A stretch of DNA of 62,459 nt, the filler included, from Acidimicrobiia bacterium (lineage in GTDB: Bacteria > Actinomycetota > Acidimicrobiia > Spongiisociales > CAZKJJ01): the NCBI GenBank assembly GCA_046759765.1. It is 30 parts of 30 records of this genome, joined end to end, with 100 filler letters (N's around TTAATTAATTAA, not from the genome) between each part and the next. Parts side by side here need not be neighbours in the genome. Positions count along the whole stretch, not along the records: positions 31,924 to 34,011 come from JBHICV010000287.1; 29 more parts are not named here. One strand, written 5' to 3'. A program made the position numbers and the translations under genes. Under the pieces are notes generated by a model that made no database searches, had not been told where the DNA came from, and was given only the letters and a program-made list of their open reading frames with translations. Numbering within the stretch: the stretch's first letter is position 1; each line of letters begins with the position of its first letter. This document shows, in pieces, positions 4,827-59,703 of the stretch.

Positions 4827-4884
4827 GTGGATGTCACCCTCAGAGAAACTCGCCGAAACGTTGCAATGACCCCCTGAGACCGCC
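4827..4884 (+). mobile_element. IS30-family right end (transposase C-terminus plus IR)
   Basis: WMSPSEKLAETLQ* followed by GTTGCAATGACCCCCTGAGACCGCC; matches the IS30 end at 44717-44863. Confidence 0.7.
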
Positions 4885-4899
4885 GCACATATGCGCTAC
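4885..4899 (+). repeat. dif-like repeat, right half (interrupted by IS30)
   Basis: GCAC-ATATGCGCTAC directly after the IS end. Confidence 0.85.
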
Positions 4900-6908: not shown

Positions 6909-6936
6909 ACCGCCCATATCGGCACATATGCGCTAC
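6909..6936 (+). repeat. dif-like 28-bp site (11-6-11)
   Basis: ACCGCCCATAT-CGGCAC-ATATGCGCTAC. Confidence 0.9.
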
Positions 6937-6954
6937 CCGAAGTAGACCACTGAG

Positions 6955-6984
6955 GCCGCCCATATTGAATCTCTTATGTCAAGG
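6955..6984 (+). repeat. Hybrid site: repeat left arm plus XerD-like arm
   Basis: GCCGCCCATAT-TGAATCTC-TTATGTCAAGG. Confidence 0.6.
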
Positions 6985-7274
6985 TGCCGGCGGGTATGGT
7001 GGACAGGACTGGGATGGGCCACACCTTCTGGTGGGCAGGCTCTTATTAGGTNNNNNNNNNNNNNNNNNNNNNNNNNNNNNNNNNNNNNNNNNNNNTTAAT
7101 TAATTAANNNNNNNNNNNNNNNNNNNNNNNNNNNNNNNNNNNNNNNNNNNNTGGTCCGCATCAAGATGCCGTTAAAAGTTGAAAGGGCGCACGCTTTCCT
7201 ATGGCAAATCTCGGCCTGATGGAACCAGGAAGAAGAACACGGCAAGCCGTGTCATCGCGCAACAGGGGACGCCG

Positions 7275-30364: not shown

Positions 30365-30434
30365 CCGGTTTAGTAAGGCGCCTGTAAGTGGGGTTTGCCA
30401 GACTTGGGGTTGATTCTTCAGCCTTGGAGTCGGG

Positions 30435-31823
30435 ATGAGTACTGCTGAGGCTGGTGTTCGGGCCTCAGAGTCTCCGGTAGGTGTCCTCTACGACGGGTTC
30501 TTGTCCTATAGCCATGCGGCTGATGATCTGTTGGCTCCGAGACTGCAGGCGGGGTTGCAGCGGTTTGCGAAGCCGTGGTGGAAACGCCGAGCCCTCAGGA
30601 TCTTTCGGGATGACGCTTCGCTGTCGGCTAATCCGCATTTGTGGTCTTCGATCACCGACGCACTCGATGAGTCGGGTTGGTTTGTGTTGTTGTTGTCGCC
30701 TGATGCTGCGGCGTCTGAGTGGGTGAACCGGGAAGTCGAGTACTGGCTCTCCCACAAGGAGGCGTCTCGGATTGTGCCGGTGGTGACCGAGGGGGAGTTC
30801 ACATGGGCGGACCGTGACATCAGCCCTGACACGACGGCTGCTCCGCCTGCTCTCTATGGGGCGTTTTCTGAGGAGCCCCGCTGGGTGGATCTGCGCTGGG
30901 CCCGCACTGACACCGACCTCGATCTGCGAAACACCCAGTTCAGAGCTGCGGTGGCCGATATCGCTTCGGCTATCCGGGGGGTGCCCAAGGACGAATTGGC
31001 ATCCGAGGAGGTCAAGCAGCACCGGCGCACGATCCGCATGGCCTGGGCTGCTGGAATCTCAGTCGCGACGCTGGCTCTCCCGGCCGTGGTTGCCGCCGTC
31101 TACGCCGTCGGAAAGGGGAACGAGGCCGAGGCGCAGGCTCGGATCTCCCTGTCGAGGGAGCTGGCCGCCTCTGCTATCAGTCAGCTCGACCGAGATTCCG
31201 AGCTGAGCCTTCTACTGGCCCTGCAGGCCGCAGAAGTATCCCGGGCCGTCGACGGACGCGTGCTGCGTGAGGCGGAGGAGGCGCTGCATGCCGCACTGCA
31301 GCGGTTCCGGCTCGAGCTGACGCTGCCCGAGACAGGTCGGGGCGAGTTCACAGCTGATGGTCGGTCCTTTGTTGCGGCCGACCCGATCTCCTATGGCGAT
31401 TATGTGGGGACGGGAAGCACTTCGGGCCGGCATCGCTTCGCTCGTGAGATGGACGGGGAGGTGGTGCTGTGGGATGGCGAGAGCGGAGAACGGATCGCCG
31501 GCTGGCCCGCCGATGCTCGGGGCGTCGTCGATCTGGCGCTCAGTCCTGACGGCGCGCTGCTGGCGACCACCGGCGACGACGGGGTCAAAGTCTGGGACAT
31601 GGCTGCTCGAACCGAGAAATACCCTCCTCTTTCGCTTCTGGGGCCGATCACGCCGGTTTTTAGCCCCGATGGGAGGTACCTGGCGGCAACCAGCATCCTG
31701 GGCCGGGTGAATGTATGGGACGTTGCCACCGGCGACACAGTTCAATCAATTCCGCACCCGGGTCTCAGACCTGCAGTTCGTGCTGCGATACAAGGCATCG
31801 CCTTCAGCTCCGATGGCTCCGTC
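30435..31823 (+). CDS. TIR domain - TM - WD40 repeat protein (3' truncated)
   Basis: YDGFLSYSH, IFRD, SEWVNRE (catalytic Glu position), TM helix, SPDG..VWD repeats. Confidence 0.88.
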
Positions 31824-32164
31824 NNNNNNNNNNNNNNNNNNNNNNNNNNNNNNNNNNNNNNNNNNNNTTAATTAATTAANNNNNNNNNNNNNNNNNNNNN
31901 NNNNNNNNNNNNNNNNNNNNNNNCCGCCTGTACTCGGATCCAGCAACATACGTCAACACGTCAGAGCTATGGGAGATCCATGTGGGCGCTTGGGCATCGA
32001 ATAAACGTGCCGAGGCCGAAGGCTCGTTCCGTGGCACCTAAGACTGTGGTATCTCCGACTGGGTAGAACACAGCCACCCAGCCGAGAACATCGAATACGG
32101 CAACCTCTAGGCGACATCTACCGCATTGGAGGGATGCGGGCAGCCTGCCCTTCGCCTACTTCAG

Positions 32165-32192
32165 GTAGCGCATATGTGCCGATATGGGCGGG
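32165..32192 (-). repeat. dif-like 28-bp site
   Basis: + strand GTAGCGCATAT-GTGCCG-ATATGGGCGGG. Confidence 0.9.
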
Positions 32193-32284
32193 TCGACCTT
32201 CGCCGAAAGGTTGTGTCGGCATTGGGGAGGGAACCGTGGCGTTTGGTGTGTGCGTCCAACCAGAGACATCAGCGGGAGGTTGAC

Positions 32285-32653
32285 ATGAGCGTCCTACGCA
32301 TCTCGGTGGCCCTGGCCCTTGTAGCCATGTTGGCAGCGGGATGCTCGGAAGCATCGCAACAGACCGAGGTAAGAGCAGTGGTTGCGCAACACTTCTCCCA
32401 TGAAGGCCTAGAGACGGGCGACCCGGTCCCTGGTGCCACCCTGCGCCTCTACCAAGGCGACACCGTCGTAATGGAAACCGTTCTCGATGAAGCAGGGACA
32501 GCCCTGATCGGCCCGGACCCGGGCTCGTACGACGTGCAGATCTCGCTCGACAGCACAGACCCGGAGTGCCTCTGGGGCGAAACCGTGTTCGGCGTTGCGT
32601 TCCCCTCATCGCCGCTCACTCTCGAGGTCTCACACATCTGCGCAGGCCAATAG
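32285..32653 (+). CDS. Lipoprotein (cassette-like gene)
   Basis: GGAGG RBS, lipobox LAAGC, prealbumin-like beta fold pattern (PVPGA..PGSY). Confidence 0.8.
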   Translation: MSVLRISVALALVAMLAAGCSEASQQTEVRAVVAQHFSHEGLETGDPVPGATLRLYQGDTVVMETVLDEAGTALIGPDPGSYDVQISLDSTDPECLWGETVFGVAFPSSPLTLEVSHICAGQ

Positions 32654-32665
32654 CCTCTTCCCCAC

Positions 32666-32694
32666 CCCACCCATATGTGGCCGATATGGCCGGT
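32666..32694 (-). repeat. Degenerate partner dif-like site
   Basis: CCCACCCATAT-GTGGCCG-ATATGGCCGGT. Confidence 0.7.
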
Positions 32695-32710
32695 CCCGAA
32701 GGCCCTACAG

Positions 32711-32738
32711 ATAACACATATGTGCCGATATGGGCGGG
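32711..32738 (-). repeat. dif-like 28-bp site
   Basis: ATAACACATAT-GTGCCG-ATATGGGCGGG. Confidence 0.88.
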
Positions 32739-33226
32739 TGTTTGACAGCCGACCGGCGTGACGTCGGTTGCCCTTGAGAATGTACGGTTCGGGAGCTGCC
32801 AGCAGAAGCGACTCATTGCGGATGCTGTTGCCCTTGAGGAGATGATGTGGCCTCCGATTCAACGAGTGATCCGATCACACACCGCAGCCAATTCGCCGAC
32901 GGTGATCGATTGGTGGCTGCTGTCTCCGCAGAAGGTCGCGGTGCTAGACGATGAGGCGATCGCTTCGATTTGGTTGCATTTCGATCCAGATGCTCTGGGG
33001 AGGAGGGAACGCTCGAACGTCGAATTCTGGGCGCCGTCATCAGACCCTGAACAGATGTTTCGCACTTCATGGAGCGAAGCCTTTGGCGTAACGAGCTCGT
33101 TGCCTCCCAGGCACGGGAGGAGGGCATGCCTGTCATTCATCAATCAGGCGACGAAACCGTCGAGGATCTCGTGGCAGCAGCCCTCCGGACCATCGGCAAC
33201 GAGGGTGCCGACTCCTAGCGGTCGAG

Positions 33227-33254
33227 GTAGCGCATATGTGCCGATATGGGCGGT
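33227..33254 (-). repeat. dif-like 28-bp site
   Basis: GTAGCGCATAT-GTGCCG-ATATGGGCGGT. Confidence 0.9.
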
Positions 33255-33403
33255 TGGTTGTCGAGGAATCTGTGGCTGTAGACGAGCCAGCAGTGGGGCG
33301 TAGAATCAATGGTCACGACGCTCATTTGGGGATGAGCCGTCTTGGGGGCGACCCAACACAGTCGGGTTGCCCCTGTTCTGGGCTCGGTCTCAAGTACGCC
33401 ACT

Positions 33404-33420
33404 GAGCCGATATGGGCGGC
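33404..33420 (-). repeat. dif-like half site
   Basis: GAGCCG-ATATGGGCGGC; the other arm is degenerate. Confidence 0.7.
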
Positions 33421-33498
33421 TGCCTGATGGGAGCCTAACTGCGGAGCTAGTCAGGTTGCCGTCCACAGGATTGTCTCTGGGCAGCTATCGACTCCGGG

Positions 33499-33702
33499 GT
33501 GAGACTGACGTGGATGAGTCTGAGCCGGGGGGCCAGGGTGCGAGACGACGCCGACTCAGGGACCGGCCGGTCCGAGCTGCTACGCGTTTCTCGCTGGCAG
33601 CTCATCAGATGGTGGGTCAGAGTTCAGGCCACCGACTACTTGCTGCTATTCGTCCTCGTAGCTGTCGCAATTCTGCTCGCGATCTACTTCGCCCGCCGTT
33701 AG
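33499..33702 (+). CDS. Small membrane protein (cassette-like gene)
   Basis: C-terminal TM YLLLFVLVAVAILLAIYF followed by ARR. Confidence 0.5.
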   Translation: MRLTWMSLSRGARVRDDADSGTGRSELLRVSRWQLIRWWVRVQATDYLLLFVLVAVAILLAIYFARR

Positions 33703-33776
33703 AGGCTTCGATAGTTGAGACCGTTGGCACACGATTCGTCGGGCCCGTCCGGATGTTCATTCCGCCCCGCCGTTCG

Positions 33777-33804
33777 CTAGCGCATATGTGCCGATATGGG
33801 CGGC
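33777..33804 (-). repeat. dif-like 28-bp site
   Basis: CTAGCGCATAT-GTGCCG-ATATGGGCGGC. Confidence 0.9.
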
Positions 33805-33914
33805 TGCCATGGCATGAATCCTCCGACGTCGGGCATCGCCCAGTCGTCAATTCGGGACATCCGCCTCGCCCTTTCACAAGCGCACGAGGTTGCATGGAAC
33901 TGAAAGGGGACAGT

Positions 33915-34011
33915 GTGGAACCTATCCACGGGATCGTCCTCGTGGACGTCGCAGAAGGGGGCGGGAAGTTCGAGGCCGAGGTGCTCAGAGGTATGGGACA
34001 TCCGGTCGTCG
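33915..34011 (+). CDS. Receiver-like domain protein start (3' truncated)
   Basis: AAGGGGA RBS; IVLVD..EVLRGMGHPV beta-alpha-beta pattern. Confidence 0.4.
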
Positions 34012-34111: not shown

Positions 34112-36177
34112 GAACAACACGACAGGTGGTCGCGTTCGATGTCGCCACCGGCGCGGTCCAGTGGACATATCACGACCCGACCACGATCGGCACCTTCAGG
34201 AGAAGGAGGGTCGGCCTGAGCCCTGACGAGGAATTGGTCACGGTCCAGATCTTCGACATCCCTCTTGTTCAAGACGAGTCGGTCGCCGTTGACGCGGAGG
34301 GCAACGACGAGAACCCTGCCCGGATCGTGGTGCTCCGTGCGTCCGACGGTGAGGTGGTGCGAGTCCTTGAGCCTGGCGCTTGTCGGTTTCTCAATGCTTG
34401 GGGCAACGGGTTCTCCCGAGATGGACAATGGTTTGCGGTATTCACCGGTACTGGGGGGTGCTTCGACGATCCCGATGCCGACTGGGTGACGGTGTATGAC
34501 ACCTCAACTTGGGAGGAGGCGTATCGCCTCCAGATCGATGGTGCGTTCGGGGAGGAGGCGGTGTTCTCGGAGGATTCGAGTCGGGTTCTCCTCTACGGAG
34601 GGGGCCGCCCGACCGAGCTGAGGTCGTTTCCGGAAATGGAGTTGATCAACCGTCTTGATGAAAGCGCTATGGCAGCTCTCAGCCCCGACGGCCAGAAGGT
34701 CGTGCAGTCCTTCTCCATCGTGGTCGTGTCGAGGCCGCTGATTGTGGACGCTGAGACCGGCGAACGCATCGGCTTCCTCGAGTCGGTGGACGATTTCCTC
34801 TCGCTCGACCCCCTTTCGTTCTCTCCGGACGGAACAAAGATTGCGGCCACGACCCATGGAGCTGACTTCGTTTTCGACGCGGAGGACGGACGGATGTTGG
34901 CCAAGCTTGGTGAGCGCGGGTTCACTTTCTCGCACTCGTTCACTGAGGATGGGTCGATGCTGCTCACCGCCACGGAAACCGCCCTGCTGTTGTGGGATCT
35001 CGGTGGCGGTCTGGACGAGTTGGGTGTTCCAATAGAGCCAGCGGACGTCGAAGCGGTCTGGATCAATCCCAATCAGGTAGCTGACGGGCCGAACCTTGCT
35101 GTAAGGCTCTTATTTCCCGACGAGAACGGCGAGATACTGGACTCCAGAGTCGTCACCGCTCTGCTCGATCCCGAGACAGGACAGGTCAGAGATCAGGTAT
35201 CCGGTTTTGGCGTGCAGCTGCCGGACGGGCGTTTCTTTGTCTCACGACAGAGAACTGGCCAGGATGGGGAACGGGTTATCGGTCCTGTCGTGATCTGGGA
35301 TCCGGCTTCGGACTCGTTCGTTGAACTCACCGACTGTGCCGCCCCTGAGTCGGCGATCGATCAGATAAGCGAGATCGACTGTCCGGGAGGCGAGCCCTTC
35401 TATGGAGCCAACGACTGGTTCTTCGGGTCTGTCGTAGCGGCCCTCGATGGATCGTTTTTCGCGGCAGAGTCGTACGCGCCAGTGGGCTCAGAGAGGTCTA
35501 TACGGGTATGGGACGGGGAGACCCTCGACGTCCGATCCGAGTTCGAGGTTCCTCGAAGCCAACATGTCACGGCTGCCGGTGCGGGCTGGCTGGGGACCTT
35601 TGACAGCGATCTCTTTGGTTGGCTCACTGTCTATGACGTTGACTCGGGGGCCGTGCTCGCCGAACCTTCAAAGGCGACAGACAGGCCTTTTTGGGTGTAC
35701 GCGGTTGCTCCGGACGGGTCGCTGCTGTACGCCGCGGACTTGGAGGGGAGCGTTTGGGTCTTTGACACCTTCAGCTGGGAGACCGTGGCCACCTGGGAGG
35801 CGCATGACGCGCGACACCGAGGGCTGGCCCTCTCCCCCGAGGGAACCAGACTGGTGACGACGGGGGAGGACGATTTCGTCAAGGTGTGGGACGTCAGTCG
35901 AATAAGAGACCGATCCTCGGTCACAGAACCCCTGCCGCTTCTCGACCGTATCCCCGCACCCTTCCCATCCGACGCAGCCTGGCTATCGGCAGATCGCCTG
36001 GCAGTGTTCCTGGGCAACGACGCCAACTGGCTCGAAGTGTCACTCTCCATCGACGAGTTGGTCACGAGTGCCCGGCAGCGTCTCACCAGAGGCTTCACAG
36101 AAGGCGAATGCGCCAACTACCAGATCGACGATCCCTGCCCAACGACCCTCGAAGCCATCCAATCAGGCAGCGCATAA
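34112..36177 (+). CDS. WD40 beta-propeller protein (5' truncated)
   Basis: Multiple SPDG/FSxDG..W(D) repeats; C-terminal ARQRLTRGFTEGECANY..PCPT. Confidence 0.88.
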
Positions 36178-36192
36178 CGGCACATATGCGCT
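36167..36192 (+). repeat. dif-like site overlapping the WD40 stop codon, cut by contig end
   Basis: GCAGCGCATAA-CGGCAC-ATATGCGCT. Confidence 0.8.
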
Positions 36193-36939: not shown

Positions 36940-37021
36940 ACCGTCGGCAGCGTGAGACCAACGAAAAGCCCCAGGGAGCCGCCCTGGGGCAAGGACCTGT
37001 TTACTTGAAAGGAACCAAGCA

Positions 37022-38248
37022 ATGCCTACAGATCCCAAACCCAACATATCACAAAACGCGGTGGAGTCCGACTCGCTCCAAAACGAAATCGACCGCCTGC
37101 TCAGCTCCGGCCTCGAAAACGTCAGTGTTCGCGAGCTCCTGGGACTGATGCTCTCCGCCATCGGTCAATCCGAACGCCGGGCCTATCTTGCCGAGGCGAC
37201 GGCCGACAAAGGCAATGGAGGCTACGGTCGTTCCTTGAACGTCGGCTCCATCCCGGTCGACATCCGGGTGCCCAGAACTCGCAGCGGCACCTTCCGGCCC
37301 CGCTCGCTCCCCCCACCCTACGCACGCGGATACTCCGAAGAGGTGCAGGCCCTTCTCCTCGGTGTGCTCAGCTCCACACGTTCCATCAACGCCGCCAAAA
37401 CCGCCCTCAGACAGATGGGCCTCGGTGCCTGCTCCGATGAGCTCGACACCGTCGCCTCAGGCCTGGTCGAGGAGCTGGAGCTCGTCAACTCGCGTCCCGT
37501 CGACCCTGACCTGCTCGCTGTCTTCCTCGACGGCAAATACGTCGAGGTCAAAGACGGCGACCGGCTGCGCCCGGCTTGCATCTATCTCGTCGTCGGCCTT
37601 CATCGCGATGGAAAGAAGAGAGTCTTGGGTTGCTTTACCCGATACGGACGAGAAGACCTCCAGGAGTGGAAAGCCGTCCTTCGCTCTCTCATCGAAAGGG
37701 GGCTCCGACGTGTCTTGATCGTCATCCACGACGACTTCTCGGGTTTGCTCGGTGTCACTCGAGGCATGTTCCCCAACTCCGATATCCAACTGTGCACCGT
37801 CCACATGCTCCGAAATGTCAGATCGCATCTCAGCAAGTCCGATGCCTCAGAGTTCATCAGCAGGTTTCGCTCTATCAAATCGGCCTGGAATTCCGATGTC
37901 GCCGCCCAGCAGTTCGAGGAGCTCTGCCAGCGTTTCGAAAAATCCTATTCCTCCTTCGTCAAGGAGTTACGGAAGAAGCGACAACATTACCTCGCTTTTC
38001 TCAACTATCCCGATGGCGTCCGGCGCACCCTGTCCACCACCAACGTCGTCGAGGCCGTCAACGGACAACTCGAGATCCTGCGCCGAAACAGCGGTGGCTA
38101 CTTCCAGTCCGAGGAAATCACCAAACTCAAACTCGGGATCGCCATCACCTCTCTCGAAAACGGTAAGTGGCGCAACGTCGCCGCTAACATGAAAGCCGCA
38201 CTCGACCAGATCAATGCCATGTTCGAGGCGCGGTTCGAATCCGAATGA
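37022..38248 (+). CDS. IS256-family (Mutator) transposase
   Basis: NG..R, RVPRTRSGTF, FLDG, L.ERGL, QLCTVH, STTNVVE. Confidence 0.95.
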   Translation: MPTDPKPNISQNAVESDSLQNEIDRLLSSGLENVSVRELLGLMLSAIGQSERRAYLAEATADKGNGGYGRSLNVGSIPVDIRVPRTRSGTFRPRSLPPPYARGYSEEVQALLLGVLSSTRSINAAKTALRQMGLGACSDELDTVASGLVEELELVNSRPVDPDLLAVFLDGKYVEVKDGDRLRPACIYLVVGLHRDGKKRVLGCFTRYGREDLQEWKAVLRSLIERGLRRVLIVIHDDFSGLLGVTRGMFPNSDIQLCTVHMLRNVRSHLSKSDASEFISRFRSIKSAWNSDVAAQQFEELCQRFEKSYSSFVKELRKKRQHYLAFLNYPDGVRRTLSTTNVVEAVNGQLEILRRNSGGYFQSEEITKLKLGIAITSLENGKWRNVAANMKAALDQINAMFEARFESE

Positions 38249-43367: not shown

Positions 43368-44561
43368 ATCACCGCTCGTGATTATGCGACACGTCGCGTC
43401 GAGCGTCGAGTGGCGGCGGGGGCAGGGTTCGCCCGTCGCCGGAGGAACGCCCGGACGCGCGGCATCAGCTTGGCCATCGTGGGACAGGTGTGGTTCCGAG
43501 TGACCTGGGCATGGAGGTCCTGCCACAGCCGTTCGATCCGGTTTTCGTTCGGGCAGTACGGCGGGAGGAAGTGGAGCACGACTCGACCGTTCAACCCGGC
43601 CACGACCGCCTGGGTGATCTTGCTGCTGTGGATGCCGAAGTTATCGACGATGACGTGAATGACCTTGGCGTTCGGGTAGGCCCTGCGCAGTTCATGGAGC
43701 AGGCCGATGAAGAGCATGCTGTTCTTCTTCTCGCCTTCGAACCATGTCAGTCGCTTTGTCGTCGCATCCATCGCTCCCGCGAGGTAGCGCTTTTCGTTCT
43801 TGCCAGGGGTGACGACCTCCTTCTGCTGACCCGGCACCATCCAGTCGTTGCCAATCTTGGGATTCAGGTGGATGTCCACTTCGTCGGCATAGACGGCAAC
43901 CTCACGAGGTCCCAGGCTCTGCAGAAGTCGGTCGATCATGCGCAACCGCTTGGCTTTGGCCTGTTTGGACCAGGGGCATCGAACCACCGGACGGGGACGG
44001 CCACGTCTGGCGCCAATCTTCTTGAGGGCTCGACTCATGGTCGAGAGGCTCACCACGATGCCCGTCTTTCGCGCCATCACCATCACCAGGAGCTCACGCG
44101 TCCAGGTCGGTCGCGTGTACTCGAACGACTCGGGCGTGGCCCGCACCACCTCGTAGAGCTGGCCGAGGTAGTCGTCGTCGATCTTGAGTTCGCCGTTGTC
44201 CTCCCGGCGATCCAGCAGGCCAGCCACGCCGAGGTCTCGGAACCGCTCCGCGACGCGGTACACGGTGGTCCGGTTCACATCGAGGGTACGGGCCACTTCG
44301 CTGACCGGCTGCCCTTGGAGGAGGTTCAAGATGATCAGGCCGCGGCGGCTGAGTCTCGCGTCCTTGCGCTGGCGGACAAACCGGCCCAATTCTCGCTGGA
44401 TGCGCTGCTTGGCGGCGAACCGAAAGTTCGGTACAATCCCGTCCATGGGAACTCCCTTCTCGGGCATCCTGCCCGGGTAGATAGGCTTTGGAGTTCCCTT
44501 TTTACAGCGCGGACCCGAATCAAAAAAGGGCCCAGGCGCTGCATAATCAAAAACGGTGATT
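43367..44561 (-). mobile_element. Complete IS630-family element
   Basis: 21-bp IRs AATCACCG.4.TGATTATGC (17/21 match), TA duplicated on both sides. Confidence 0.92.
43382..44467 (-). CDS. IS630 transposase
   Basis: HTH, YADE, VDNFGIH, LPPYCPNENRIERLW. Confidence 0.95.
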   Translation of the reverse strand: MPEKGVPMDGIVPNFRFAAKQRIQRELGRFVRQRKDARLSRRGLIILNLLQGQPVSEVARTLDVNRTTVYRVAERFRDLGVAGLLDRREDNGELKIDDDYLGQLYEVVRATPESFEYTRPTWTRELLVMVMARKTGIVVSLSTMSRALKKIGARRGRPRPVVRCPWSKQAKAKRLRMIDRLLQSLGPREVAVYADEVDIHLNPKIGNDWMVPGQQKEVVTPGKNEKRYLAGAMDATTKRLTWFEGEKKNSMLFIGLLHELRRAYPNAKVIHVIVDNFGIHSSKITQAVVAGLNGRVVLHFLPPYCPNENRIERLWQDLHAQVTRNHTCPTMAKLMPRVRAFLRRRANPAPAATRRSTRRVA

Positions 44562-44716: not shown

Positions 44717-44863
44717 CCCAAAGGCACCGACATGTCCAAGCTCACCCAAGAAGACCTCGACGCTGCAGCCCACTCCCTCAACGGACGGCCTAGACAAACG
44801 CTCGGATGGAAGACACCATCAGACAAACTCGCCGAAACGTTGCAATGACCACCTGACTCCGCA
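44717..44863 (+). mobile_element. IS30-family right end
   Basis: PKGTDMS..LNGRPRQTLGWKTPSDKLAETLQ* then IR GTTGCAATGACCACCTGACTCCGCA. Confidence 0.88.
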
Positions 44864-44878
44864 GCACATATGCGCTAG
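44864..44878 (+). repeat. dif-like repeat, right half (interrupted by IS30)
   Basis: GCAC-ATATGCGCTAG. Confidence 0.85.
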
Positions 44879-46010: not shown

Positions 46011-46038
46011 CCCGCCCATATCGGCATATATGCGCTAT
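46011..46038 (+). repeat. dif-like 28-bp site
   Basis: CCCGCCCATAT-CGGCAT-ATATGCGCTAT. Confidence 0.9.
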
Positions 46039-46055: not shown

Positions 46056-46083
46056 GCCACCCATATCGGCAGATATGGTTCGG
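46056..46083 (+). repeat. Degenerate partner dif-like site
   Basis: GCCACCCATAT-CGGCAG-ATATGGTTCGG. Confidence 0.75.
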
Positions 46084-46416: not shown

Positions 46417-46550
46417 GCGGCTTACCCCCCCTCGCAGAAAGACGGCCCGCAGGCAGTCCACCACCGTCCACAACAGCCGAAGCATGCGATCAGATCGTTC
46501 CTATGTCGTTACGAGACCTGCCCGTGCGACGTGATTCTGAATCGGTAACA

Positions 46551-46580
46551 CCCGCGCAGATCGCAGCACATATGCGCTAC
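46551..46580 (+). repeat. dif-like site with 8-nt spacer
   Basis: CCCGCGCAGAT-CGCAGCAC-ATATGCGCTAC. Confidence 0.75.
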
Positions 46581-54313: not shown

Positions 54314-54860
54314 TCACTGCCCTGCTGCCTCTGCCGCCCTCGGAAGGGGAACCACCGCAGGAGTCGTGGGCTGGTCGGACACGTACTCGGCCACCCGGGT
54401 GGCGGCCTGTTTCAGGTCGGCCTCGCTCACGATGTTGTAGCGGTCGAAGACGGATCGGCTCTTGTGGCCGGTAGCGCTCATCGCCACACGTTCGGGCACC
54501 CCGGCTCGCACAAGATTGCGGACCACGGTTCGTCTGAGGTCGTGGAACAGCTTGCCGAGGAGTCCAGCTGCCTGGCAGGCGCGCTTCCACGTCTTGCGCC
54601 AGTCCCCAATGCGGTGGCCATTCACGTGAAAAACGAAAAGACACCCGAGCATCCGGGCCTGCCATCGCCGCTCGATGAGATCCTTGAGGGGCCGTGAGAG
54701 CACGAGTACCCGGCCGTCCTTGTTCTTCGACAGCTCCGGCCGCAGCCGGATCACACCGACCACCCGGTCCACATCGCGCCACTGTAACCCGATGATTTCG
54801 CCGCGCCGCCAGCCCGAGAGGTAGGCGAAGTCGAGCACTTCTTGGTAGTCGAGGGGACAA
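54314..54860 (-). pseudogene. Tyrosine integrase, catalytic domain only
   Basis: GWRRGE, KN, FHDLRR, TGHK..FDRY; N-terminal domains absent. Confidence 0.85.
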
Positions 54861-54933
54861 CCAGCTGTTGGACGTGAGTCACCACCACCCCGTTTTTGAG
54901 TGGCTTGGCTCCCTCCGTTCCTGCCGTCAACCC

Positions 54934-55317
54934 TCATTTCGGTCGACATTTGCGGAGGACAAGGTATCCGTGCCCATGACTTTTCTTTGAAGGGGGACGT
55001 TTCTCCGCTACGGCTCGGTAGACCTGGCTGTCATTCCACATTATCGGCGAGCGAGGCTTGATCCGCTTGGGGCCGCCAAGCCTTCCCTGCAGAGCGTCCA
55101 TCACATCCTTGAGGCGGTTATCCACGTCGTGTAACCGGAGGGCTGTCCCTTTCAGGTAAAGGCGGACCTGCAATTCTAGCTTGTCTTTCTCCCGGTAGAC
55201 CACGCCCCGCTGCTCCTGTTTCCGCAGAACTCGTTCCTGTATCTGCCGCTGCCATTCACGGGGCGGTGTGACATACTCCGGCAGCGGCACCTTGAGCGTC
55301 TTTCTCGGTTTCGCCAT
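54934..55317 (-). CDS. RusA-like Holliday-junction resolvase
   Basis: DVDNRLK..DAL..NDSQV. Confidence 0.8.
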   Translation of the reverse strand: MAKPRKTLKVPLPEYVTPPREWQRQIQERVLRKQEQRGVVYREKDKLELQVRLYLKGTALRLHDVDNRLKDVMDALQGRLGGPKRIKPRSPIMWNDSQVYRAVAEKRPPSKKSHGHGYLVLRKCRPK

Positions 55318-59074: not shown

Positions 59075-59226
59075 NNNNNNNNNNNNNNNNNNNNNNNNNN
59101 NNNNNNNNNNNNNNNNNNTTAATTAATTAANNNNNNNNNNNNNNNNNNNNNNNNNNNNNNNNNNNNNNNNNNNNGTTAGATTTTTCTCTGTACGAGTTTG
59201 TGCGTCAACCATAGTGAAAACACGTA

Positions 59227-59703
59227 ATGCGCGGTCCAGCCCCTAAAAATCCGGCTATCCGCCGGCGCAAGAATCGCGTGTCGACCGCTGCGACGCTGCC
59301 CCATCCCGGCAAGAGTAAACGGCGCAAAGTGCCGCCATTGCCGCCGCTCGATGATCCCACCGAGCAGTGGCACCCTGAGGTCATCAGTTGGTGGACTGAG
59401 GTCTGGCGGTCGCCGATGGCGGCTGAATTCCTGGACTCAGACGTCCGAGGCGAGCTCTATGCCCTCGCACGCCTCTATCAGCGGTTCTGGAAGCCGGGAC
59501 TCGACGTGCGAGAACTGTGCAGCCTCTTTCATGCGATCCAGAAGGGCGGCCAGAGCTTCGGCTTGACGCCGATCGATCGCCGTCGCCTCCAGTGGGAAAT
59601 TGAGAAGGGCGAAGAAGCGGCCGATCGCACGAAGAAACGGCGCCAGGCGAAGAAAGCGGCAAAGCGCCAGAAGGATCCACGAAAGGGTCTCAAACTCGCC
59701 TGA
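59227..59703 (+). CDS. Phage terminase small subunit
   Basis: GPAPK..WW..VW.SP..FGLTP.DRRRLQW; upstream of the large subunit. Confidence 0.85.
   Translation: MRGPAPKNPAIRRRKNRVSTAATLPHPGKSKRRKVPPLPPLDDPTEQWHPEVISWWTEVWRSPMAAEFLDSDVRGELYALARLYQRFWKPGLDVRELCSLFHAIQKGGQSFGLTPIDRRRLQWEIEKGEEAADRTKKRRQAKKAAKRQKDPRKGLKLA

Follow-up and report, generated by a model that had tools for sequence, protein, structure and literature searches.

A stretch of 62,459 nucleotides from an Acidimicrobiia bacterium (assembly GCA_046759765.1) was analysed, and this stretch, positions 1-62459, is called the window below. It consisted of 30 contigs, with lengths falling from 2,330 to 1,590 bp and N44-TTAATTAATTAA-N44 linkers between them. 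All four members of an array of directly repeated 28-bp sites, with small genes in the intervals, were located on one contig of 2,088 bp (31924-34011, the array contig). We lean towards reading the four sites as members of a dispersed family of short palindromic repeats of Acidimicrobiia-type genomes, similar to repetitive extragenic palindromes (REPs) and bacterial interspersed mosaic elements (BIMEs), which acts as a hot spot for recombination and for the insertion of insertion sequences (ISs). The array contig would then be one small, variable and partly decayed island, and the abundance of these repeats in it may have been the cause of its poor assembly. Since the contigs were merely joined by linkers, features of different contigs are physically unlinked, and since the array lies on a single contig, no physical neighbour is known before position 31924 or after position 34011.

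A search with the 27-mer, allowing up to three mismatches, gave plus-strand matches at 32165 (0 mismatches), 32711 (3), 33227 (0) and 33777 (1). The whole window contained six matches against 0.00 expected, and a chance origin was ruled out, as 100 shuffles gave zero matches. The 21-nt core CATATGTGCCGATATGGGCGG was exact in all four array sites, which shared one orientation at spacings of 546, 516 and 550 bp, just as an earlier note on this DNA, which had proposed a gene-cassette system, had described them. The family-wide results came from one pattern scan with CATATNTGCCGATATGGGNGG against 185,579 species-representative genomes, in which at least 142 stretches matched; 127 loci were stored (cited by L numbers), with full flanks for 80 of them. 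Counts of copies, doublets, orientation and flanking genes rest on the matches listed and are lower bounds.

Structure and forms of the site

Each unit had an invariant centre of 6 nt flanked by two arms of 11 nt, GTAGCGCATAT or GCCGCCCATAT on the left and ATATGGGCGGN or ATATGCGCTAC on the right, and conservation reached from -9 to +22 relative to the core (CAG-G/C-TAGCG, core, GT). The palindrome covered 27-28 nt, with arms CGCATAT/ATATGgGCG about the centre, and was imperfect, the G-G mismatch in it being conserved. The 11-6-11 layout, the inner CATAT/ATATG arms and the invariant asymmetric centre noted earlier were thus all recovered. This anatomy would suit a true gene-cassette system, in which a recombinase encoded elsewhere binds both arms and exchanges strands within the 6-nt centre, and in which modules between direct sites are excised as circles and reinserted at any site, giving co-oriented arrays at several loci. 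We regard such a system as possible but doubtful.

Two arm types were distinguished, L (GTAGCGCATAT) and R ((G)CCGCCCATAT). The GTGCCG-centred copies comprised 100 L/R', 31 R/R', 15 L/L' and 0 R/L' forms, counts with a bias, since the right arm was fixed in the scan. The R/R' subfamily had perfect 11-nt palindromic arms (GCCGCCCATAT-GTGCCG-ATATGGGCGGC), a further point for gene cassettes, and subfamilies with perfect arms of 8-11 bp exist.

The head of the site was GTAGCG in 61/161 copies and CTAGCG in 28/161, GTAG or CTAG together being present in 89/161, and the GCCGCC subfamily (13 copies) lacked this head. That the GTAG varies had been one of the premises of the earlier note against a REP, and these premises were judged wrong. 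A GTAG/CTAG tetranucleotide 5' of a palindrome, and modules flanked by direct repeats of one hairpin type, would also fit cargo-carrying single-strand units of the IS200/IS605-like, "peel and paste" kind, with the direct hairpins as ends, the tetranucleotide as guide or target and a Y1 HUH transposase acting in trans at the fork; this explanation we consider improbable.

REPs had been set aside beforehand on the ground that the copies were direct and not inverted doublets, and the wider survey spoke against this argument. A second class of sites (A-type) had the centre CCGGCA, approximately the reverse complement of the centre of the main class (B-type, GTGCCG) shifted by one base. An upstream A-type partner was present in 53/158 B copies at a distance of about 20 nt, most often 26 nt, and cores less than 100 nt apart were centre-inverted in 34/35 cases (34:1). 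About two thirds of the sites were single 28-bp units. Doublet linkers, for example TCCCTCGTCCACTCTCGCAG, recurred at unrelated loci, from which it follows that the doublet of ~70 nt has multiplied as a unit; such multiplication points to spread of the repeat itself and stands against gene cassettes.

Folding as single-stranded DNA gave -4.6 kcal/mol for the common B form (z -0.8 for the top strand and -1.8 for the bottom strand), -7.3 kcal/mol for an L/L' variant at 36169..36192 (z -2.8) and -18.9 kcal/mol for a doublet, which folded as a long hairpin (z -3.3); a second doublet had z -1.0. The weak hairpin of the main form favours gene cassettes and disfavours the single-strand units. On the site strand, the flanks of 142 sites were C-rich upstream (-30 to -10) and G/T-rich downstream (+23 to +40) in a roughly symmetric manner, which the C-rich doublet linker explained only partly.

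Genomic spread, junctions and inserted elements

Consensus-type copies were found in at least 27 assemblies, 18 of them labelled Acidimicrobiia, Acidimicrobiaceae, Actinomycetota or Actinomycetes and 9 labelled otherwise. Four more matches (L027, L032, L050 and L074) came from unrelated phyla and had atypical bases where the pattern has N; with 19 fixed bases, chance alone would yield roughly this many. Exact copies were present on at least 34 contigs of one metagenome-assembled genome (MAG) and, within a long-read contig of 2.09 Mb, near 226, 229 and 1,190 kb, and single loci stood beside housekeeping genes, namely transketolase and lipoyl synthase (L048) and moaC, moeA, plsY and bacA (L062). 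In the longer loci the copies formed small islands, one copy per gene or gene pair, and adjoining housekeeping genes had none (L048, 4-8 kb; L028). The clustering sought in related genomes was therefore seen as small islands, not as one array, and the idea of a single cassette array did not hold. Genome-wide scatter, which had been named beforehand as counting against cassettes, was observed, including single copies between housekeeping genes.

Some contigs that were 99-100% identical had been binned as Acidimicrobiia, Gammaproteobacteria and Kiloniellaceae within one sampling series (L020/L052, L005/L035), and further pairs of this kind occurred in differently labelled MAGs (L006/L091, L060/L109). 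Such near-identical contigs in bins of different phyla suggest cross-binning of hard-to-assemble contigs more than spread across phyla; recent transfer is the alternative. Among 72,556 plasmids no site match above chance was found, and carriage by plasmids or phages was rejected, as matches were at chance level only (E = 0.6).

The copies were largely intergenic (85/89). Relative to the site, the upstream gene had the same direction in 37 cases and the opposite direction in 29, and the downstream gene in 36 and 31 cases, respectively; 8/31 opposite-strand downstream genes ended at most 12 nt from the site, and copies were often flush with stop codons. Because orientation was independent of the adjoining genes and copies abutted stop codons, a role as promoter, operator or terminator was rejected. 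A regulatory DNA or RNA element common to many genes, 5' leaders included, is accordingly very improbable. Such an element could account for the distance of about 95-115 nt from the sites of the array contig to the next open reading frame (ORF) start and for the motif being a near tandem of two 10-mers (ATATGTGCCG ATATGGGCGG), but the window had no Rfam match, many copies lie right against stop codons where genes converge, and the junction variation and IS targeting described below would be left unexplained.

Genes were called with a simple codon-usage caller that was made for this analysis, with the long ORFs in these sequences as its training set. Flanking genes were mostly accessory (SnoaL, SRPBCC, glyoxalase, RidA, hydrolases and DUFs). 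Class III adenylate/guanylate cyclase genes were unusually frequent beside sites (8 loci: L006, L021, L023, L026, L028, L045, L051 and L065), DUF2652 was found beside sites in L018, L053 and L065, and one cyclase gene with sites on either side recurred in two distinct neighbourhoods (L023 and L028). The cyclase gene bracketed twice, together with islands of one-gene modules holding glyoxalase, SnoaL, SRPBCC and RidA genes, argues for gene cassettes.

Co-orientation held 30:1 for adjacent exact copies, which were spaced 45-4,367 nt apart (358-4,367 nt save for one 45-nt pair), and B-type cores within a contig were co-oriented 54:2, both exceptions having palindromic arms; the counts take in a few near-identical contig pairs. 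The direct orientation seen in the array thus extended to the family, and random orientation, the second observation named in advance as unfavourable to cassettes, was absent. On the site strand, 21 loci had a positive GC skew and 20 a negative one (mean 0.005), skew at third codon positions (GC3 skew) was equal in co-oriented and anti-oriented genes (p = 0.93), and 92 genes within loci were co-oriented with the site versus 111 anti-oriented (p = 0.21), in locus pieces of at most 12.6 kb, where a weak skew could escape detection. An orientation set by the replication strand was thus unsupported by GC skew, GC3 skew or gene strand. Co-orientation that is independent of gene strand and skew speaks for gene cassettes, and the random orientation of genes within the modules speaks against them. 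For the single-strand units, contig-wide co-orientation could be the outcome of lagging-strand targeting, since Y1 transposases act on the lagging-strand template according to the relevant parts of PMC3333891 and PMC6006769, but no skew or gene-strand signal was tied to site orientation.

Junction pairs were defined as sites on different contigs that were alike over 80 nt or more of an abutting flank (identity of 90% or higher). Five site pairs shared both flanks, two the upstream flank only and seven the downstream flank only, the seven representing five independent groups. In the all-against-all comparison most homology blocks stopped at a site, with both contigs continuing in different sequence, and three comparisons alone ran through sites to contig ends. 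The variation bounded by sites that the earlier note had called for was present, with near-identical contigs diverging at sites. Junction sequences were read by hand, and exchange inside the site fitted 12/13 comparisons. Arm variants moved with their own flank, L065/L086 differing in the left arm and upstream and L065/L117 in the right arm and downstream. Sharing of one flank at 97-100% identity, breaks inside the site and arm variants that travel with their flank are all points for gene cassettes.

The breaks did not all fall at one position, which stands against that explanation: L041/L069 broke in the outer left arm, with likeness stopping right after CTAG(C), and the L023/L028 junction had a flipped centre. 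Likeness ending after CTAG(C) is expected for insertion of single-strand units 3' of their target tetranucleotide, but this was the one junction of the empty-target kind and was seen at one end. The compared loci included no filled-versus-empty pair, a further point against cassettes, and no chains of the type X-site-Y versus X-site-M-site-Y beyond L020/L052/L046. A miniature inverted-repeat transposable element was rejected, as the compared loci had neither a duplicated flank nor a filled-versus-empty pair.

Members of two IS families, IS110 and IS30, were inserted at the site centre, a behaviour known for REPs and so a point against cassettes. The IS110-family transposase in L036 (PF01548, 2e-20; NF033542) was frameshifted, and its element (L036 578-1966) measured about 1.4 kb, with a left end that was short and a right end that was long and conserved. 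The left junction ended in GTAGCGCATATCCGG and the right junction began with CAATATGCGC, which together rebuild an A-type site split between CCGG and CA. The right end extended ~200 nt past the transposase stop, was conserved in 8 copies, including one in the window (7051-6937), and contained a stem whose loop varies. It is a possible source of a bridge RNA.

An IS30-family transposase (NF033563, 4.5e-40) was identified in the second element, an end of which lay at L009 1-405. The IS30-family end was found in five loci at a junction with CA on one side of the break and GCCGATATGGGCGG on the other, and the mirror junction, GCGCATATGTGC followed after the break by TG, also occurred five times, three of them at contig ends in the window (4885-4899, 44864-44878 and 46565-46579). 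These elements abut half sites split at GT(GC)CG, and the overlap of the junctions by GC would imply a 2-bp duplication. IS30-family ends at contig ends are probably one reason for the short contigs.

A Pfam search was carried out on ORFs of at least 70 aa from loci of at least 900 nt; 17 ORFs of L027, L032 and L050 were left out because these loci were chance-level matches in other phyla. No tyrosine recombinase (Phage_integrase) was detected among the 230 flanking proteins from about 60 loci, so that the linked recombinase expected in the earlier note was not found beside any of them, and this tells against gene cassettes. A lone tyrosine recombinase fragment, a phage-type C-terminal part, was present at 54314-54949 (-) on another contig that had no site copy. 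The favoured reading would involve an enzyme encoded once, apart from the sites, and acting in trans, which would recognise the arms and both make and recombine the copies, with a Y1/HUH nuclease of the REP-associated tyrosine transposase (RAYT) type or a tyrosine recombinase as candidates. Recombination between co-oriented copies would delete, excise or swap the gene blocks between them.

Several observations weigh against a REP/BIME-like family. No RAYT (Y1_Tnp, PF01797) was found in the 230 flanking proteins and 150 window ORFs, whole genomes not having been scanned; the same result runs against the single-strand units, which need a Y1 transposase, and the RAYT linkage that had been named beforehand as counting against cassettes was likewise not seen. 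The unambiguous A2 form (L-CCGGCA-R') had direct arms with the centre alone flipped, and in the doublets too only the 6-nt centre was flipped, whereas a pair of REP and inverted REP inverts the whole unit. The commonest form is a poor hairpin with a conserved, uncompensated mismatch, and a site bound by protein as double-stranded DNA would explain this no less well. The part of PMC2817692 that treats BIMEs gives their orientation as alternating, whereas the sites here were co-oriented contig-wide, an arrangement undescribed for REPs in the literature found, and this co-orientation had no link to strand composition. The 21-nt core was identical across many species-level MAGs, unlike REP/BIME sequences, and the one-gene modules parted by sites in L028 and L048 look cassette-like. 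Three of these features are untypical of described REPs, namely co-orientation without a strand signal, a weak hairpin with a conserved asymmetric centre, and islands of single-gene modules, and they are the reason why a recombinase-driven cassette system was kept as an unlikely but serious alternative.

Modules of the array contig and other features of the window

The positions of the sites, modules and related features are shown in Table 1. Full sites were present on 4/30 window contigs. The half site of the array contig, which had been placed at 33404, was confirmed at 33406-33419, and it was broken between GT and GCCG, the same point as in the IS30-family junctions elsewhere; its left flank matched neither the IS30-family nor the IS110-family element. 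A decayed copy at 32668-32693 was found in addition to the sites named in the earlier note. The three intervals were mutually unrelated, as stated in the earlier note, with local alignment scores at shuffle level, and tandem duplication of a unit of ~540 bp was ruled out on this ground.

The lipoprotein assigned to the first interval was plausible from its signal peptide, codon score and 11 homologs (62-77% identity, mostly on short contigs); a CarboxypepD_reg match in Pfam was weak and below the cut-off. Module 2 is probably a decayed gene. The gene after the last site had been called receiver-like, which could not be confirmed from its 39 codons. No homologs of the ORFs of this contig were found among the fetched loci. 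A strong GC-rich inverted repeat (GGGGCGACCC ... GGGTTGCCCC) was noted by eye at 33290-33340, in the part of the third interval that separates site 3 from the half site.

Table 1. Coordinates of the sites, half sites, modules and joined IS ends in the window
Feature	Position	Strand	Description
Site copy 1	32165..32192	+	Left arm GTAGCGCATAT, centre GTGCCG, right arm ATATGGGCGG, then G
Site copy 2	32711..32738	+	Outer left arm ATAACA; 21-nt core exact
Site copy 3	33227..33254	+	Exact
Site copy 4	33777..33804	+	CTAGCG head; core exact
Decayed site	32668..32693	+	1-nt insertion in centre, CCCATATGTGGCCGATATGGCCGG; direct doublet with copy 2
Half site	33406..33419	+	Final 4 nt of centre and right arm: GCCG ATATGGGCGG
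Module 1 gene, putative lipoprotein, 122 aa	32285..32653	+	Signal peptide ending LAAGC; good codon score
Module 2	32842..33218	+	Weak frame-shifting coding signal (about 32764-32944, then 33069-33218); no Pfam match
Module 3 ORF, 67 aa	33499..33702	+	Hydrophobic C-terminal stretch; no Pfam match
ORF after site 4, first 39 codons	33894..34010	+	Cut by contig end; no Pfam match
Exact site	6910..6936	-	Upstream of histidine kinase gene; other contig
IS110-family right end	6937..7051	-	Joined to right half of A-type site (ATATGGGCGG, 6956-6965), then linker, then copy 6910
Left half site (GTAGCGCATATGTGC)	4885..4899	-	Joined to IS30-family element end (4827-4884), contig end
Two-left-arm variant	36169..36192	-	AGCGCATAT GTGCCG TTATGCGCT; very end of contig; better hairpin
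Site, 2 mismatches	46012..46038	-	Between EamA gene and stand-alone RAM-domain gene; opposite to both
Degenerate copy	46057..46080	-	45 nt from copy 46012, same orientation
Left half site	44864..44878	-	Joined to IS30-family end (44717-44863)
Left half site	46565..46579	-	Joined to degenerate stretch resembling IS30-family end (about 46545-46564)

The short contigs of the window were rich in mobile DNA, with an IS256-type (Transposase_mut) transposase at 36956-38245 (+), an IS630-type (DDE_3) transposase at 43385-44560 (-) and a phage small terminase subunit at 59218-59700 (+). Two large WD40-repeat proteins, possibly with functions in signalling or defence, were encoded at 30414-31823 (+), this one with an N-terminal TIR domain, and at 34114-36174 (+). 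No tRNA genes were found in the window by ARAGORN.

Comparison with known systems

To our knowledge, work on REP-type repeats and their enzymes has been confined almost entirely to Proteobacteria. If the reading as a REP/BIME-like family is true, a well-defined REP-type family exists in an uncultured, environmentally abundant class of actinobacteria, unusual for its highly conserved core, its strict local co-orientation and its clear place in strain differences of gene content. Such a family would account for the poor assembly and binning of these genomes, and its sites would serve as a marker for variable islands and as natural repeated targets for studying IS110-type (bridge-RNA) and IS30-type elements. 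Should the sites instead be substrates of a gene-moving recombinase, they would provide cassette-like gene exchange with a second route that does not depend on integrons. A literature search (without subscription journals) that included REP/RAYT, integron attC and the motif sequences returned no paper on such elements in Acidimicrobiia.

Xer/dif sites share with the present sites the 11-6-11 geometry, the inner (C)ATAW/WTATG palindrome and the direct repeats expected from repeated integration, but they occur as one terminus site per replicon, whereas many copies per contig and MAG were found here and the XerD-type arm was absent. When the dif of Frankia alni, as quoted in PMC3025954, was compared manually, 5/11 positions matched in the left arm, 5/11 in the right arm and 1/6 in the centre. 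The dif likeness put forward earlier therefore stood for geometry, but the match in sequence was weak (10/22 arm positions), and the chromosome's own dif was rejected on copy number and arm sequence.

In arrays of integrative mobile elements exploiting Xer (IMEXs) and in the pdif modules of Acinetobacter, sites of 28 bp bound modules, as was seen here. The pdif sites alternate in orientation and are plasmid-borne; in contrast, the present sites were co-oriented 54:2 and had no match in the plasmid set.

Integron attC sites, including clusters of attC sites lacking integron-integrases (CALIN), resemble the present sites in being co-oriented between small accessory-gene modules and often flush with stop codons. 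An attC site folds as a hairpin, and the doublet form can fold into an imperfect one of ~70 nt, with z -3.3 in one copy and -1.0 in another. The attC boxes R''/R' have the consensus GTTRRRY; these boxes were absent from the sites, and no IntI was found nearby. Unlike in integrons, the sites were spread over many loci, two thirds were simple 28-bp units and gene direction was random with respect to the site. It is conceivable, if rather unlikely, that genome-wide shuffling of single-gene modules in Acidimicrobiia, by a chromosomally encoded recombinase and without an adjoining integrase, is a dispersed counterpart of the integron that works on simple double-stranded 11-6-11 sites. As listed among the references of PMC11208160, attC sites are also targeted by IS1111/IS110-type elements.

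The palindromic hot spots of IS30 and the REPs targeted by the IS110 elements IS621, ISPpu9 and ISPpu10 likewise have a fixed insertion point at the centre of a palindrome. The sections of PMC1525189 and PMC11208160 on this subject describe REPs as specific targets of IS3- and IS110-family elements. IS1111-group elements carry a long conserved right end that encodes the bridge RNA, as far as PMC11208160 covers them, and the right end of the IS110-type element in L036 is alike. Such target systems explain the half sites and some of the contig breaks, but not the origin or spread of the sites.

Known REP/BIME elements (palindromic units) are those of Enterobacteria and Pseudomonas with their RAYT (TnpA-REP) enzymes, and REPINs are doublets of this kind. 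REPs are characterised in the relevant parts of PMC3333891 and PMC2817692 as imperfect palindromes of 30-40 nt with a 5' GTAG and a stem mismatch required by the enzyme, REP and inverted REP being paired with linkers, and the 2010 survey placed RAYT/REP within Proteobacteria (PMC2817692). The present family differs in its host class, Acidimicrobiia, and in the weak AT-centred stem of its main form. As in REP/BIME elements, the palindrome is imperfect, falls within 20-40 nt and has a conserved mismatch in the stem, with GTAG 5' of it in part of the copies; the location is intergenic, a genome holds tens or more copies, and these occur as singlets and as doublets with linkers (PMC3333891, PMC2817692 and PMC1525189, in their accounts of these repeats), the doublets here having only the centre flipped. 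The corresponding parts of PMC1525189 and PMC11208160 link E. coli BIMEs to strain-specific segments and to recombination between REPs. Enterobacterial REPs, like the sites described here, are entered by IS elements, and in both cases the repeats are IS targets at their centre and stand at the borders of strain-specific segments, as far as PMC1525189 describes them.

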